Part shown: piece by piece, positions 16,448 through 48,915 of the stretch | Numbering within the stretch: position 1 is the stretch's first letter | Layout of the letters: every line of letters begins with the position of its first letter | From: Promethearchaeota archaeon | GTDB taxonomy: Archaea; Asgardarchaeota; Lokiarchaeia; Sigyniarchaeales; SOKP01 | Length of the DNA stretch: 64,000 bases | Reading direction: 5' to 3' | NCBI GenBank assembly: GCA_048938005.1 | Contig: JBHLMQ010000001.1 | Location: forward strand, 32,001-96,000 | Program-made: the position numbers and the translations under genes | The notes under the pieces: generated by a model | Databases searched by the model: none | What the model saw: the letters and a program-made list of their open reading frames with translations, nothing else | What the model was told of the DNA's origin: nothing

Positions 16448-19123
16448 ATGTCAAAAAAATCATTTGGCTCAGGATATTTTGGTGAATGGATTGAAGATGA
16501 ATTTGGATTGCCCGCTTACCGTTATACATGTGATCAAATTAATGATCCTAAAGCAATTACGCCCATGAATGAAGTTTGGCATTCTAAAACTAATCACTGG
16601 CATCAAGTAGGTAATGATCGATTAGTCGCTGTAGCATCTAATTATGGGTATGTCCAAGTTAGACAAGATGAAGGAGGTCCAAAATTTCTTAATGTATATG
16701 ATCCTCAATATGGCCATTATGCTGGAGGATTTGGGTATTTAACCGATGGAGAAGTTATAATTAGCACTTTTTATACTGGAAATGATTCATCATTCGAAAG
16801 GATATTTGGAGTAGGATATTATCGAAAAACAGTTGAAGATAATGGATACAAATTGGATCAAGTGATTTACGCTCCATATGGAGATGACCCAATTCTAATA
16901 TCCCAAGTTACCATTACTAATAACCGTGAAGTGGCAGTTGATCTAAGTTGGGTCGAATATTGGGGTTGTTTTATGTATCAGTTTTCATTCTTATCTTTTG
17001 GTATCGGATTGAAAGAAAAAGATCAATCAATTACTAGAAAACTCAGACGAGAGTTTAGTGAAAAATTTAAACATAAATTCAACATTATTTGTGAAGGTAA
17101 AGGACTCCTAGAATCAAAATATATTGAGTCTGATAATAAAGATAAAAGTAAAAAAACTCGAGCTAAAAAACCAGCATATGATGATAAAGACCCTCCATCG
17201 ACATTTTTAATTTCTCTTGACGATATTGTAGATGGGTTAAGCACAAATGAATTATTGTTCTTTGCTAATGGAGATTTAGAATCTCCTAAAGGAATAACAA
17301 CTGCATTTAATTCAAAAGAGACATTGTCTAATAATGGAAATGCGATGTTTATTAAACGGAAAATTCATTTAAATCCTTCTGAGAGTCAAACTTTATTCTT
17401 TGCCTTTGGATATCTTCCAGAGGGTTTTGAATTCAACTCTCTTCTGAACAAATACAAAAAAGATAAATCTGAATTATGGAGAAAATCAAGTGAATCTTGG
17501 AAAAAGAAAATTATGGTACTAAACATTCCTGAGGAGCCTTGGATAAATAGAGAACTAAAATGGCACAATTATTATTTACGTAGTGCAATGACGTATGATA
17601 GCTTCTTTCAAGAACATATTCTTTCACAAGGATTAATATATCAATATATAATGGGTTTTCAGGGTGCTATACGTGATCCTTTACAACATGTTAAGCCATT
17701 TTTATATATTCAACCAGAAATTGTGAAAGAAGTTCTCAGATACTCACTAAAAGAAGTGCGGGAGGATGGAGAAATACCATATTCTATTATAGGTTTTGGT
17801 ATGACATTCGACTGGGTAAAAGCAAGTGATTTCGAATTATGGCTTCTATGGTTAGCTAGTGAATATGTTCTCATAACTAGAGATGCGAGCTTTCTTGACG
17901 AGGAAATTTCTACTTATCCTCTTTATGGTAGAAAAGCGGGAAAATCATATGTGCGAGAATTGCTGTATCGATGTTATATACATTTTACTGAAATAACTGG
18001 AACAGGACGCCATGGAATTCAACGATTATCTGCTGGTGATTGGAATGATACAATTTTATTAGGATTAGTTCCAAATGAGAAATTAAGCGAGGTTCGAAAA
18101 AATGGAGAAAGTGTTTTAAATTCGGCTATGGCTACTTATACTCTTAGGTTTTATGCTGAGATGTTAAATTTTATTGGCGAAAACAGTGTAGCTGACCAGG
18201 TTTTGAAATATGCTACAATTCAATGTGAAGCTGTTCGTGCTCAATGGACAGGTAAATGGTTTAAACGTGCGTGGATAGCAGAAGATATAGGATGGTTTGG
18301 AGAAGATCAAATGTGGTTAGAGCCTCAACCGTGGTCAATTATAGGGAAAATAACAAATCAAGAACAGGCAAAAATATTAGTTCAAAATATAAATCAGCTA
18401 TTACGGATTCCATCAAAAATTGGCACTATGCTACATAGTAAAGGATTTGAAGGTAAAATAATAGGCATGGGAGCAAATGCAGGTATTTGGTATTCTCTTA
18501 ATGGAACTTTGATTTGGGCGTTATCCAAAGTGGATGGAAGTATGGCATGGGATGAATGGAAAAAAAATACACTTTCGATTCATGCTGAAAATTATCCAGA
18601 TATATGGTATGGAATATGGAGTGGTCCAGATACATATAATTCTGTTTTATCTAAGTATCCAGGTCATACTGTTTTTAATCCATTCTATCTTACAGGAAAT
18701 CTGAGAGATCAGTCGAAAATTCTTACATCTGTAGGTCTAAACTTAACAGATTTCCCTATTATGAATCTTCATAGCCATGCGTGGCCAATATATAATACTA
18801 TACACTTGATAGGGGTAGAATTTACTGCTGAAGGTGTAGAAATATCACCGATTTTACCCAAAAAAGAATATGATTTTTCTTCCCCAATATTAGGATTTAA
18901 AAAATCAAATGACGGATATTCTGGATGGTACGCTCCGCTTGTTGAAGGTGAATGGAAAATTGTACTGAAATTAAATAAAGAAGAAATCGTAAAAATTGCC
19001 TTCTTGGAATTAAATGGTAAAATAGAAGATTTTAATATTGAAGAGGATAAAATAATTTGGAAAGGAAGGAGTAGACCAAATAAACCTTTAAATTGGAAGT
19101 TAATTTACAATTTAAACATTTGA
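16448..19123 (+). CDS. GH94-like glycoside phosphorylase/hydrolase
   Basis: RDPLQH, catalytic GDWND, GESVLN; beta-sandwich plus (alpha/alpha)6 size. Confidence 0.75.
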   Translation: MSKKSFGSGYFGEWIEDEFGLPAYRYTCDQINDPKAITPMNEVWHSKTNHWHQVGNDRLVAVASNYGYVQVRQDEGGPKFLNVYDPQYGHYAGGFGYLTDGEVIISTFYTGNDSSFERIFGVGYYRKTVEDNGYKLDQVIYAPYGDDPILISQVTITNNREVAVDLSWVEYWGCFMYQFSFLSFGIGLKEKDQSITRKLRREFSEKFKHKFNIICEGKGLLESKYIESDNKDKSKKTRAKKPAYDDKDPPSTFLISLDDIVDGLSTNELLFFANGDLESPKGITTAFNSKETLSNNGNAMFIKRKIHLNPSESQTLFFAFGYLPEGFEFNSLLNKYKKDKSELWRKSSESWKKKIMVLNIPEEPWINRELKWHNYYLRSAMTYDSFFQEHILSQGLIYQYIMGFQGAIRDPLQHVKPFLYIQPEIVKEVLRYSLKEVREDGEIPYSIIGFGMTFDWVKASDFELWLLWLASEYVLITRDASFLDEEISTYPLYGRKAGKSYVRELLYRCYIHFTEITGTGRHGIQRLSAGDWNDTILLGLVPNEKLSEVRKNGESVLNSAMATYTLRFYAEMLNFIGENSVADQVLKYATIQCEAVRAQWTGKWFKRAWIAEDIGWFGEDQMWLEPQPWSIIGKITNQEQAKILVQNINQLLRIPSKIGTMLHSKGFEGKIIGMGANAGIWYSLNGTLIWALSKVDGSMAWDEWKKNTLSIHAENYPDIWYGIWSGPDTYNSVLSKYPGHTVFNPFYLTGNLRDQSKILTSVGLNLTDFPIMNLHSHAWPIYNTIHLIGVEFTAEGVEISPILPKKEYDFSSPILGFKKSNDGYSGWYAPLVEGEWKIVLKLNKEEIVKIAFLELNGKIEDFNIEEDKIIWKGRSRPNKPLNWKLIYNLNI

Positions 19124-46880: not shown

Positions 46881-47411
46881 ATGACTAAAAATTCCATTGC
46901 TCTTATTGGTTTTATGGCTACTGGAAAAACATTAATAGGAAAAGCATTAGTAGAGTACCTTGGTAGTGATTACACATTTATAGAAACAGATCAACTTATA
47001 GTTCAAGAAGTTGGTAAGCCTATTCCTAGAATTTTTGCTGAAGAGGGAGAAAGCAAATTTAGAGAGTATGAGATTTCTGTGTGTGAGAAAGCCTCTAAAT
47101 TAAATAAAGTTGTTATTTCATGTGGGGGTGGAGTAGTTTTGAATAAGGTCAATATTGAAAATTTAAAAAAAAATTGTCATATTGTCTTATTAAAAGCAAC
47201 TCTAGAGGAAATTTATAAGAGAGCTATAAAAAACGGAAAAGAAACTAGACCTGTTATTGATAAAGAAGATCCAAAAAGAGAAATTGAAGAGGCTCTAAAT
47301 TTTCGGAGATCTTATTATGATGCAGCAGCGGAGATCGTTATTGATACAACAAATAAAAAAATTCAGAATATTGTTAGAGAGATTGCTATAAAAACCCTTT
47401 TAAAAACCTAA
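46881..47411 (+). CDS. aroK: Shikimate kinase (AroK/NMP-kinase type)
   Basis: GFMATGKT, GESKFREYE, SCGGGVV and RP motifs. Confidence 0.93.
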   Translation: MTKNSIALIGFMATGKTLIGKALVEYLGSDYTFIETDQLIVQEVGKPIPRIFAEEGESKFREYEISVCEKASKLNKVVISCGGGVVLNKVNIENLKKNCHIVLLKATLEEIYKRAIKNGKETRPVIDKEDPKREIEEALNFRRSYYDAAAEIVIDTTNKKIQNIVREIAIKTLLKT

Positions 47412-47470
47412 ATTTAAATTTATCCACTCTACTAAATATTTAAAATATATTATAAAAGGGTAAAGCTATC

Positions 47471-47670
47471 ATGACAGAATATAAAAGAGTAAAATGCCCT
47501 CAATGTGGCAATGATAATCCACGTAAACTTCATGAAGAACCAGATAGGAATAAGGTGCTTTACTACAGTATAGGTAAAGCTATTTCAGCTTACCGCTGAG
47601 GCAGGGCACTCCGGTTTATGCAAAAAACATTAAGTGTGGAGATTGCGGTAATTATTTCAAAAAAAATTAA
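47471..47670 (+). CDS. Unannotated 56-aa zinc-ribbon protein split by a candidate 29-nt intron: join(47471..47571,47601..47670)
   Basis: Spliced translation is MTEYKRVKCPQCGNDNPRKLHEEPDRNKVLYYSMQGTPVYAKNIKCGDCGNYFKKN*. The unspliced frame stops at TGA 47597-47599 with only one CxxC. Confidence 0.8.
47572..47600 (+). other. Candidate bulge-helix-bulge(loop) pre-mRNA intron, 29 nt
   Basis: 4-bp helix CAGU(47566-69)/GCUG(47595-98). 3-nt bulges AU|A and AG|G. Intron hairpin GGUAAAGCU/AGCUUACC. Exon-exon stem GUGCUUU(47555-61)/AGGGCAC(47603-09). Confidence 0.75.
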
Positions 47671-47709
47671 TTTATAATTATTTTTTTCTTATTTTTTTAA
47701 TTTTAGTTT

Positions 47710-48915
47710 TCACATTAATGATAAAACAATTTTATTTTGTGCCTTTAGCATATCTCCCATGATAAGTTCCATAGCTTCTTTAATATCTGGATTATTCTCA
47801 GAGATACTACGCTTAGCATTGACACTTGCCATTAATACTTCATTTAATCCACGTAATATCATATCAGGAGAATACCAAGGGCGTTGTGAAGCCCACCATT
47901 GCTGGCAGCTATGAATTCCCCGATCTAACAAATTCCTTGCATTATCGAATATCTTTTTCTTTTCATCATTCATACCATCCCGATATTTAGCTGCTAAATG
48001 AATTAAAGTAAGAGCATACATGAAAAATCTATGTTGTTCGATATGAATTTCATTAGTAGGGTCGAACCAGAGAGGAAAGGGTACATCCTGGATAATATCA
48101 TATGGCATTGTCGACCAACTGGAATCCCGTGGGACTTGAGTGAACCCTTTAGGAAATTTATCGACTATTTCTGAAATTGTACATATTTTCACATCATTTC
48201 GATGTGGTAGTACGCCAAATAACGGTATGAGAAAATTTTTAATTGCATGTTTTACATGGTGCCCAAATGTTTCACCATCCATTGCAAGTATTACATAATA
48301 ATCCTCAGAGGTGTTCTTATAATATAAACGTTTAATAAACGCATCAACGTTGTTAATCTTATCGAAAGCACAATCAATTGAGGTATAATCGTCCCTAAAT
48401 AGTAATTTTAATCCATTTGGATGGATTGATATATTATTCGTAGGAAACTCTGGTAAAGTATTGGCAATACCACTCATAATCATCCAATCAAATCCCGCCT
48501 TTTTAACAATTTTAAATACTTCTACAGAAACCGCCATTTCTGGGGGGAAAAATCCACGAGGCTTAAAAAGTTCCCCAAAAAAATGCCGATTAGTCTCATT
48601 ATTTAACTCTATTTGACGCGTAATTTCAGGTTCCGGAATTAAAGGAAGTAAAGGATGAAATTTACCTGAACCTGTAAATTCAATTTGCCCTCTAGAAGCT
48701 AGAGTAGTAATAGTCCCTATTAGATCATCATATCCAAAATCATGTAATTGTTCAGTTAAGGTTCCATTAATGTTTAGTGTTATTTTTACCTCTGGATGAT
48801 CTGTCAAGGCATTAAAAATAGGTCTATAGGATTCATTAACGATTTGTTTAATTACAGCCGGGATTTGAACTGGAGGTTGATAAATATGAAATAAAAAGGT
48901 AAAATAAACTACCAT
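47710..48915 (-). CDS. Glycoside hydrolase family 57 protein
   Basis: HIYQP, ESY, HPLLPL, FPPEMAV, MDGETFGHH and SSWS motifs. Confidence 0.9.
   Translation of the reverse strand: MVVYFTFLFHIYQPPVQIPAVIKQIVNESYRPIFNALTDHPEVKITLNINGTLTEQLHDFGYDDLIGTITTLASRGQIEFTGSGKFHPLLPLIPEPEITRQIELNNETNRHFFGELFKPRGFFPPEMAVSVEVFKIVKKAGFDWMIMSGIANTLPEFPTNNISIHPNGLKLLFRDDYTSIDCAFDKINNVDAFIKRLYYKNTSEDYYVILAMDGETFGHHVKHAIKNFLIPLFGVLPHRNDVKICTISEIVDKFPKGFTQVPRDSSWSTMPYDIIQDVPFPLWFDPTNEIHIEQHRFFMYALTLIHLAAKYRDGMNDEKKKIFDNARNLLDRGIHSCQQWWASQRPWYSPDMILRGLNEVLMASVNAKRSISENNPDIKEAMELIMGDMLKAQNKIVLSLM

Follow-up and report, generated by a model that had tools for sequence, protein, structure and literature searches.

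The zinc-ribbon locus

A short gene for a zinc-ribbon protein, interrupted by what is very likely a 29-nt intron of the bulge-helix-bulge (BHB) type, lies in a stretch of Promethearchaeota DNA (assembly GCA_048938005.1, contig JBHLMQ010000001.1, positions 32,001 to 96,000). The window, meaning the whole stretch analysed, is 64,000 nt long, and coordinates below are window positions unless a contig or locus is named. Its genome, designated G000, is a draft assembly of 101 contigs that is 95% complete; g1 is the genus of the window, and the other G-numbers are sampled genomes. An open reading frame (ORF) at 47471..47599 on the plus strand encodes 42 aa with a CPQC knuckle and is ended by the TGA at 47597-47599. 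The frame at 47602-47670 holds 22 residues, including a second knuckle, CGDC, and the TAA stop at 47668-47670, and in G000 has no in-frame start codon of its own. Deletion of 47572-47600 in silico gives a 56-aa product with both CxxC knuckles. A preliminary description of this DNA had reported the ORF, the second frame, the structural elements treated below and the 56-aa product, and all of its sequence statements and coordinates proved correct when rechecked. The gene is divided as follows:

47471..47571, plus strand: exon 1, from the start codon to the first two bases (AU) of a split Met codon, with CPQC; its boundary is set by the intronless orthologues
47572..47600, plus strand: candidate 29-nt BHB-type intron, which if retained shifts the frame and brings TGA 47597-47599 in frame
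47601..47670, plus strand: exon 2, the G completing AUG, 22 codons with CGDC, and the stop TAA at 47668-47670

The product belongs to a family of zinc ribbons of about 56 aa with two knuckles, for which we found 130 database relatives, nearly all of them 55-58 aa long. Named relatives are hypothetical proteins of Promethearchaeota or Lokiarchaeota, some carrying the automatic Joint Genome Institute (JGI) label "ribosomal protein S27AE". We rejected assignment to the S27ae family, as the model score is 17.5 bits against a cut-off of 54. Zinc-ribbon matches of the 56-aa protein in Pfam and NCBIfam were all below threshold, and a protein-cluster search with a homologue returned only generic small zinc-ribbon clusters, with scores of about 0.9 that are within the chance range. 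At least nine listed database proteins of 42-44 aa span only about 60-67% of the family profile. These entries (among P0111-P0123) are interrupted genes as called by annotation pipelines, and because public calls list the truncated 42-aa protein, small interrupted genes in these genomes are being missed. The same annotation error, interrupted genes entered as hypothetical proteins of 42-44 aa, is to be expected again for every other small gene of these genomes that is interrupted.

Distribution and boundaries of the insert

Relatives of the locus were collected by DNA search in the same genus, of which 54 species genomes were available. In a 20-locus alignment the insert is found in 17 loci and missing in 3, while among all 46 collected loci it is exactly 29 nt long and in the same place in 34, and absent in 12. 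A covariance model added a 35th bearer, G067, and a profile search added G043 and G057, in which the site is uninterrupted. Over the whole genus, 35 of the 54 genomes have an insert of exactly 29 nt, 14 are uninterrupted, and 5 could not be assessed (the locus is at a contig end in G001 and masked by N in G022, and G050, G020 and G066 gave paralogue matches only). In G022, a single-contig assembly, the orthologous locus (L168, on C1 at about 203990-204090) is N-masked just past the first knuckle.

The preliminary description had predicted that intronless orthologues would read YYSMQGTPVY across the site, and this is borne out by the 14 uninterrupted genes among the 49 assessable genus genomes, all of which read YYSMQG(T/N)PVY. 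Twenty further orthologues, from named Promethearchaeota, Promethearchaeia and similar records, are all uninterrupted; 18 of the 20 match this reading and the other two have one substitution. The search that found these related loci used two peptide patterns, one of them across the intron site, and interrupted orthologues with a divergent first knuckle could have been missed by it; a profile search of the order, described below, does not have this bias.

At the nucleotide level the uninterrupted orthologues read AGTAT^GCA(A/G)GG or TC(A/G)AT^GCA(A/G)GG, encoding YYSMQG, where the caret is the site of the insert. Since these genes read AT^GCA, the boundaries of the insert cannot slide, and only removal of 47572-47600 matches them. 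Identical boundaries follow, with no fitting, from the rule that the splicing endonuclease cuts after the second nucleotide of each bulge, which is how the preliminary description had arrived at them. The A, U and G that flank the insert are invariant, and its removal restores the Met of the intronless orthologues. Cuts at the symmetric bulge positions thus give a junction that is collinear with the uninterrupted orthologues, both the 14 in the genus and the 20 in named records.

RNA structure of the insert

The proposed endonuclease substrate consists of the following elements, listed in order along the transcript:

47555..47561, plus strand: 5' strand (GUGCUUU) of the exon-exon helix, pairing with 47603-47609
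47566..47569, plus strand: 5' strand (CAGU, exonic) of the central helix H, pairing with 47595-47598
47570..47572, plus strand: 5' bulge AUA, 3 nt, unpaired in the minimum-free-energy (MFE) fold; putative cut at 47571/47572
47573..47594, plus strand: hairpin h' of the intron, with a stem of 8 bp, a single bulged A and a 5-nt loop
47595..47598, plus strand: 3' strand (GCUG, intronic) of the central helix, from the MFE fold and covariation
47599..47601, plus strand: 3' bulge or loop AGG, relaxed; putative cut at 47600/47601; can pair weakly with 47563-47564
47603..47609, plus strand: 3' strand (AGGGCAC) of the exon-exon helix, from the MFE fold and covariation

The MFE fold of 47550-47615 (RNAfold) has an energy of -21.6 kcal/mol and a z-score of -2.35; of 200 shuffles, 5 fold equally well. 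It contains the exon helix 47554-61/47603-10, the CAGU 47566-69/GCUG 47595-98 helix, an unpaired AUA at 47570-72 and the hairpin at 47573-94. The H-B-h' half of the motif, that is, a 4-bp helix, a 3-nt 5' bulge and an intron helix, is therefore present. The 3' side is less regular. The preliminary description had called the structure a relaxed BHB with an irregularity on the exon side, and the MFE fold agrees in pairing two of the three bases of the 3' bulge. The motif is best placed in the relaxed (HBh'-like) class rather than the strict hBHBh' one. In the canonical register, beyond an invariant A.C mismatch next to the 3' bulge, the pairing resumes with U-A in 34 of 34 sequences and then with C-G, U-G or U-A in 33 of 34; an alternative geometry for this side is a 4x4 internal loop followed by a 7-bp exon helix.

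The intron varies at 24 of its 29 positions (32 sequences) with its structure kept. Over 34 sequences and 19 pairs, standard pairs occupy 93.3% of cells; sliding the 3' partners by 1-3 columns lowers this share to 25.9-49.8%. Covariation had been proposed as a check in the preliminary description, and two-sided changes are indeed found in 9 of the 19 pairs, compared with a mean of 4.8 in shuffles that take no account of relatedness, none of which (0 of 500) reaches 9. In the hairpin h', 7 of the 8 pairs have changed on both sides. The central helix is paired in 99.3% of cases and includes C-G to U-G or U-A and U-G to U-A or C-G variants, while one pair of the exon-exon helix covaries (GC in 16 sequences, AU in 6, GU in 4, UA in 1, unpaired in 7). 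The A and U of the 5' bulge are invariant, and its third base is A, T or G.

An exact 11-nt direct repeat, GGTAAAGCTAT, occurs at 47459-47469, upstream of the start codon, and at 47573-47583, the start of the hairpin. We considered it as a duplication or target-site mark and rejected this, as the upstream copy is not conserved in the orthologues; the repeat is probably due to chance. In G000 the 3' arm of the hairpin might, in principle, be bound by the upstream copy in competition with its proper partner.

Reading frame and selection on the exons

Once the 29 nt are deleted, 32 of 34 sequences have a full frame that runs past the second CxxC, and the other two hold a second insert. The product lengths of 54-69 aa obtained after removal reflect a script that picks the first ATG, GTG or TTG. 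The ratio of nonsynonymous to synonymous substitution rates (dN/dS) is 0.078 for exon 2 (311 pairs) and 0.076 for exon 1 (409 pairs) among 32 sequences, and the variable sites in the 19 codons of exon 2 that were compared number 6, 9 and 18 at codon positions 1, 2 and 3, respectively. Without removal, the frame through the exon 2 region meets a stop in 27 of 32 sequences, and the products are 35-48 aa long with a read-through tail of varying length. Exon 2 is under purifying selection like exon 1, in a frame that is reachable only after removal of the 29 nt. No second orthologous copy was found in G000 with the family profile, which matched contig C97 in two frames (79471-79572, profile positions 1-35, and 79581-79667, profile positions 32-57) and otherwise only distant paralogues.

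Splicing machinery

G000 encodes two EndA paralogues, of 198 and 205 aa, with PF01974 scores of 104.7 and 73.8 bits; their genes are at L021:1456-2049 (minus strand) and L022:1210-1824 (plus strand). Their best matches to solved tRNA-splicing endonuclease chains have E-values of 1.8e-35 for the first and 8e-25 for the second. Two distinct paralogues would fit an (alpha-beta)2 architecture. RtcB is also encoded (568 bits). ARAGORN found only 30 tRNA genes in G000 and called introns, 9-65 nt long, in 21 of these; many further tRNA genes were probably missed owing to multiple or non-canonical introns. This result agrees with a 2026 preprint, which reports that the tRNA genes of some Asgard families are heavily interrupted. 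According to an earlier study, Asgard archaea have an (alpha-beta)2 EndA with an L1 loop, and relaxed motifs are cut only by this type and the epsilon2 type (PMC5829648). PF06479 (IRE1) gave no match in G000, but the family also matched none of 14 control genomes.

Inserts at other sites

Five further inserts, each at a site other than that of the 29-nt intron (intron 1), were found in the same gene. G015 has, besides intron 1, an insert of 31 nt that lies 48 nt further downstream and occupies another exonic CAGUAU (L049:1475-1514, minus strand). This insert has a CAGU/GCUG helix with AUA and AGA bulges, and it is identical to the intron 1 of the same genome at about 30 of 38 aligned positions. 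Compared with the sister genome G014, the exon bases just 3' of it are far more divergent than those elsewhere in the gene. The insert has the look of a copied intron 1. In G016, an A/U-rich insert of 30 nt, which contains an in-frame TAA, separates the Tyr-Ala-Lys codons from the second knuckle (L038:1641-1698); this forms a relaxed BHB with 3 of 4 bp in the central helix and a 9-bp hairpin, and two 30-nt placements restore the frame. G057 does not have intron 1 and instead has a 32-nt insert after Pro-Val-Tyr-Lys (L169:1612-1667), with a UUAU/AUAA helix, AAA bulges and an 8-bp hairpin.

In the profile search of the order (151 genomes), 57 genomes outside the genus gave an orthologue-level match, and 55 of these genes are uninterrupted. 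G076 (L204:315-376) and G139 (L205:223-284, minus strand), both of the sister genus g14, have related 30-nt inserts at the Pro-Val-Tyr-Lys site of G057. The inserts at this shared site have UUAU/AUAA or UUAU/GUGA central helices and AAA bulges, and the hairpin of G057 is unrelated in sequence to those of the g14 pair. Weak profile matches in five g14 genomes turned out to be paralogues only and were set aside.

The bulge rule repairs the frame at the inserts of G015, G016, G057, G076 and G139, giving products collinear with the uninterrupted orthologues. Each is an observation in one or two genomes, and they are supportive of the BHB reading rather than proof of it. The short-window fold of the G057 insert is better than most shuffles (z = -2.12, 5 of 200 as good), yet its MFE structure does not contain the UUAU/AUAA helix.

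Interpretation and alternative explanations

We hold with considerable confidence that 47572-47600 is a relaxed (HBh'-like) BHB intron of 29 nt, lying in the coding sequence of a CxxC...CxxC zinc-ribbon gene of about 56 aa and spliced by EndA and RtcB. In the pre-mRNA, the exonic CAGU can pair with the intronic GCUG, with the AUA bulge and the intron hairpin on one side of this helix and, on the other, the AGG bulge or loop closed by exon-exon pairing. A two-subunit EndA would cut after the second nucleotide of each bulge, and RtcB would ligate the exons. Ligation would restore the AUG for Met, drop the in-frame stop and put the second knuckle in frame; an unspliced message would yield solely the truncated 42-aa peptide with one knuckle. 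Splicing is probably constitutive, and the mRNA-splicing switch suggested in the preliminary description is speculative.

Several points weigh against this interpretation. The shuffles used for covariation ignore relatedness, and the slid-partner control is the sounder of the two. A search for RNA sequencing runs covering 46881-48915 listed none. The MFE fold shows no clean bulge at the 3' AGG: G47600 is paired there with U47564 and G47601 with C47563, flanked on either side by a 1x1 mismatch. In the canonical register, the position expected to close the 3' bulge is occupied by the invariant A.C mismatch. Folded in a short window, the intron alone does no better than shuffles (z = -1.2), and the same is true of the inserts of G015 (z = +0.30) and G016 (z = -0.18). 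The rule of cutting after the second nucleotide of each bulge reportedly goes back to Marck and Grosjean in 2003 and to structural work; a preprint on BHB tRNA introns gives no more than one cut per bulge. Excision in vivo, the exact cut sites and ligation are what we infer, as are the roles of the EndA subunits, including which of the two paralogues is catalytic.

If the 29 nt stayed in the message, the second frame might instead be reached by translational recoding, either a programmed -1/+2 frameshift or ribosome hopping. Bypassing is known from gene 60 of phage T4 and from the mitochondrial "byp" elements, and a structured hairpin with a nearby stop codon occurs at bypass sites; here too a stable hairpin comes immediately after the break, with a stop codon shortly downstream. 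The frames themselves speak for very little chance of this. The overlap of the two open frames measures 1 nt in G023 as in G062, and 4 nt in G051 as in G052; it ends at +4 of the insert in G008 and begins at +21 in G051, so that the bearers have no common shift site. There is no slippery heptamer in 47572-47597, and no matched take-off and landing triplets flank the insert. Variation within it takes the form of compensatory base-pair changes and is not codon-wise, and the invariant flanking A, U and G restore precisely the Met of the intronless orthologues. That the gene is simply broken, with an inactivating insertion leaving a 42-aa N-terminal peptide or no product and exon 2 as a relic, is how public gene calls in effect treat the locus, as the 42-44-aa entries attest. 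We find this scarcely credible given the low dN/dS and the third-position bias of exon 2 in the frame obtained by removal across 32 species, the intact second knuckle in 32 of 34 sequences after removal, and an insert length held at 29 nt in 35 species. The varying read-through tail of the 35-48-aa products, the want of an intact second copy in G000 and the want of a start codon in its exon 2 point the same way.

Removal of the 29 nt from the RNA by some nuclease and ligase other than EndA and RtcB is highly unlikely. In its favor, the 3' site departs from the canonical bulge; the 5' half, with its 4-bp helix, 3-nt bulge and hairpin, is nonetheless canonical, the EndA rule gives exact boundaries both here and at the five other inserts, and G000 encodes EndA of a type for which cleavage of relaxed motifs has been reported. 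Self-splicing introns are far longer than 29 nt, and an insert of this size falls far below their range. As for an assembly or sequencing artefact, which together with a private insertion had been named in the preliminary description as what might undo its reading, the draft state of the genome in 101 contigs would allow it, but the insert is present, with its own substitutions, in 35 separately assembled species genomes, of which G006 is a single contig. We give this explanation next to no chance, and EndA/RtcB splicing of a BHB intron is the reading that we carry forward.

History and genome-wide scan

The covariance model of intron 1, R1, was searched against the 54 genus genomes and gave no further member besides the second G015 insert, itself a part of the training alignment. 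One other match (G058:C62, 26.8 bits) was rejected, as it lies inside an uninterrupted dehydrogenase-like frame. In the order sample, R1 matches occur in 34 of 151 genomes, all of them of g1; 98 genomes from 23 other genera gave none. In a tree built from the neighboring shikimate-kinase gene (58 rows), the 35 bearers need 2 changes compared with a shuffled mean of 18.4, and the 12 outgroup rows are all uninterrupted. Constraining the bearers to one clade is not rejected (p-AU 0.225, approximately unbiased test), on a tree of poor resolution in which 22 of 55 inner branches are open. Most likely, a single gain in the genus was followed by inheritance of the intron in at least 35 species.

It is conceivable, though we put it forward only tentatively and consider it rather unlikely, that BHB introns in this Asgard family are still mobile and colonize mRNAs and tRNAs wherever the exon supplies half of the motif. 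We raise it because a gene of about 170 nt has been invaded at four sites, with one intron apparently copied and one site shared. If it were true, the locus would be a natural record of the arrival of endonuclease-dependent introns in genes of the archaea most closely related to eukaryotes; the 2026 preprint on Asgard tRNA introns leaves open the question of how such introns arrive. With inserts at three further sites, one of them seemingly a copy of the first, the gene offers a tractable system for the study of BHB intron gain.

A script-based scan of G000 returned 330,980 H-B-h' structures and recovered the target intron among 52 candidates in the window. Frame fusions produced by rule-based removal were compared with those obtained on displacing the 3' cut by 1 or 2 nt, in a scan that lacks the power to reveal a handful of true cases. 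At this low power no enrichment is seen: fusions numbered 18,558 as against 18,263-18,690 in the shifted controls; those with at least 100 codons on each side, 897 as against 849-889; and those in which exon 2 has no start codon, 951 as against 954-1,037.

Comparison with known systems

The closest relative of this intron is the cbf5 pre-mRNA intron of the Crenarchaeota, reportedly described by Watanabe in 2002. Both are short (relaxed) BHB introns in a coding sequence, in hosts with a hetero-oligomeric EndA, with a patchy distribution among related lineages, and both leave a gene that is readily mis-annotated as frameshifted or truncated. The present case differs in affecting a 56-aa zinc-ribbon gene and not a pseudouridine synthase, in being found in Asgard archaea (Promethearchaeota), in being a prediction from sequence, and in that the same small gene has inserts at four sites. 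The tRNA introns of archaea share with it the motif of a 4-bp helix between two 3-nt bulges, relaxed here on the 3' side, the size range (9-65 nt in G000), the presumed enzymes and repeated, lineage-specific gains; here, by contrast, the host RNA is an mRNA, and removal restores a reading frame and not a tRNA fold. The word mRNA has 0 occurrences in the preprint on BHB tRNA introns mentioned above. Like gene 60 of T4 and the mitochondrial byps, the gene has a short structured insert in an otherwise intact coding sequence, but bypassing involves matched take-off and landing codons and an insert that is retained, and here there is no such codon pair and the flanks restore Met.

The preliminary description had also likened the system to the splicing of HAC1 and XBP1 in eukaryotes. 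The likeness stands in logic, both being non-spliceosomal, with an endonuclease, RtcB-type ligation and a small intron whose removal changes the frame. It does not extend to the recognition motif and the nuclease. The nuclease acting on HAC1 and XBP1 is IRE1, which recognizes twin stem-loops with 7-nt loops, not a BHB, and is stress-regulated; the RNA motif here is a BHB. Work on the role of RtcB in splicing of the HAC1/XBP1 type appears in the reference list of PMC5829648.

As for precedent, a 2009 study states that no archaeal pre-mRNA splicing had by then been confirmed outside cbf5 (Yokobori 2009, PMC2738675). A later paper gives cbf5 as the only such BHB intron reported until 2020 and itself adds an intron in the 5' untranslated region of HVO_1309 of Haloferax volcanii (PMC7714728). 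The latter, as described there, is likewise an mRNA substrate of the splicing endonuclease, but it lies in an untranslated leader in a euryarchaeon with a homodimeric enzyme, while the present intron lies in coding sequence and changes the frame. The preliminary description knew of no BHB intron in an Asgard mRNA, and we found no report of one in the literature searched, most subscription journals and supplements being outside the search. For two decades cbf5 was the sole support for archaeal coding-sequence introns spliced by the endonuclease. The zinc-ribbon intron is very probably a second case of this kind, rare in archaea, in a different gene and in the Asgard archaea, and the comparative support for it, namely the presence and absence of the insert at one site, covariation and selection on exon 2, comes close to the most that sequence can provide. 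The tRNA-splicing machinery of the closest archaeal relatives of eukaryotes thus plausibly acts on messages as well.

Neighboring genes and flanking elements

The zinc-ribbon gene lies between a shikimate-kinase-like gene (46881-47411) and a gene for a 401-aa protein (47710-48915) on the minus, or other, strand. The shikimate-kinase neighbor is retained in 59 of 66 loci examined, other genera included. Two flanking elements can be proposed:

47429..47447, plus strand: A/T-rich block about 25-40 nt upstream of the start codon, putative TATA-like promoter element of a short-leader transcript
47681..47698, plus strand: two T-runs 3' of the stop codon, putative oligo-T transcription stop

In the 20-locus alignment the upstream A/T-rich block is nearly invariant and the T-rich block downstream of the gene is conserved in the orthologues; we read the first as a possible TATA-like promoter element and the second as a possible oligo-T transcription stop. 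A distant paralogous family of small two-knuckle proteins, which begin with RRKCPKCG and end with WREK, is widespread in the phylum, and all of its members that were examined (L135-L148) are uninterrupted.

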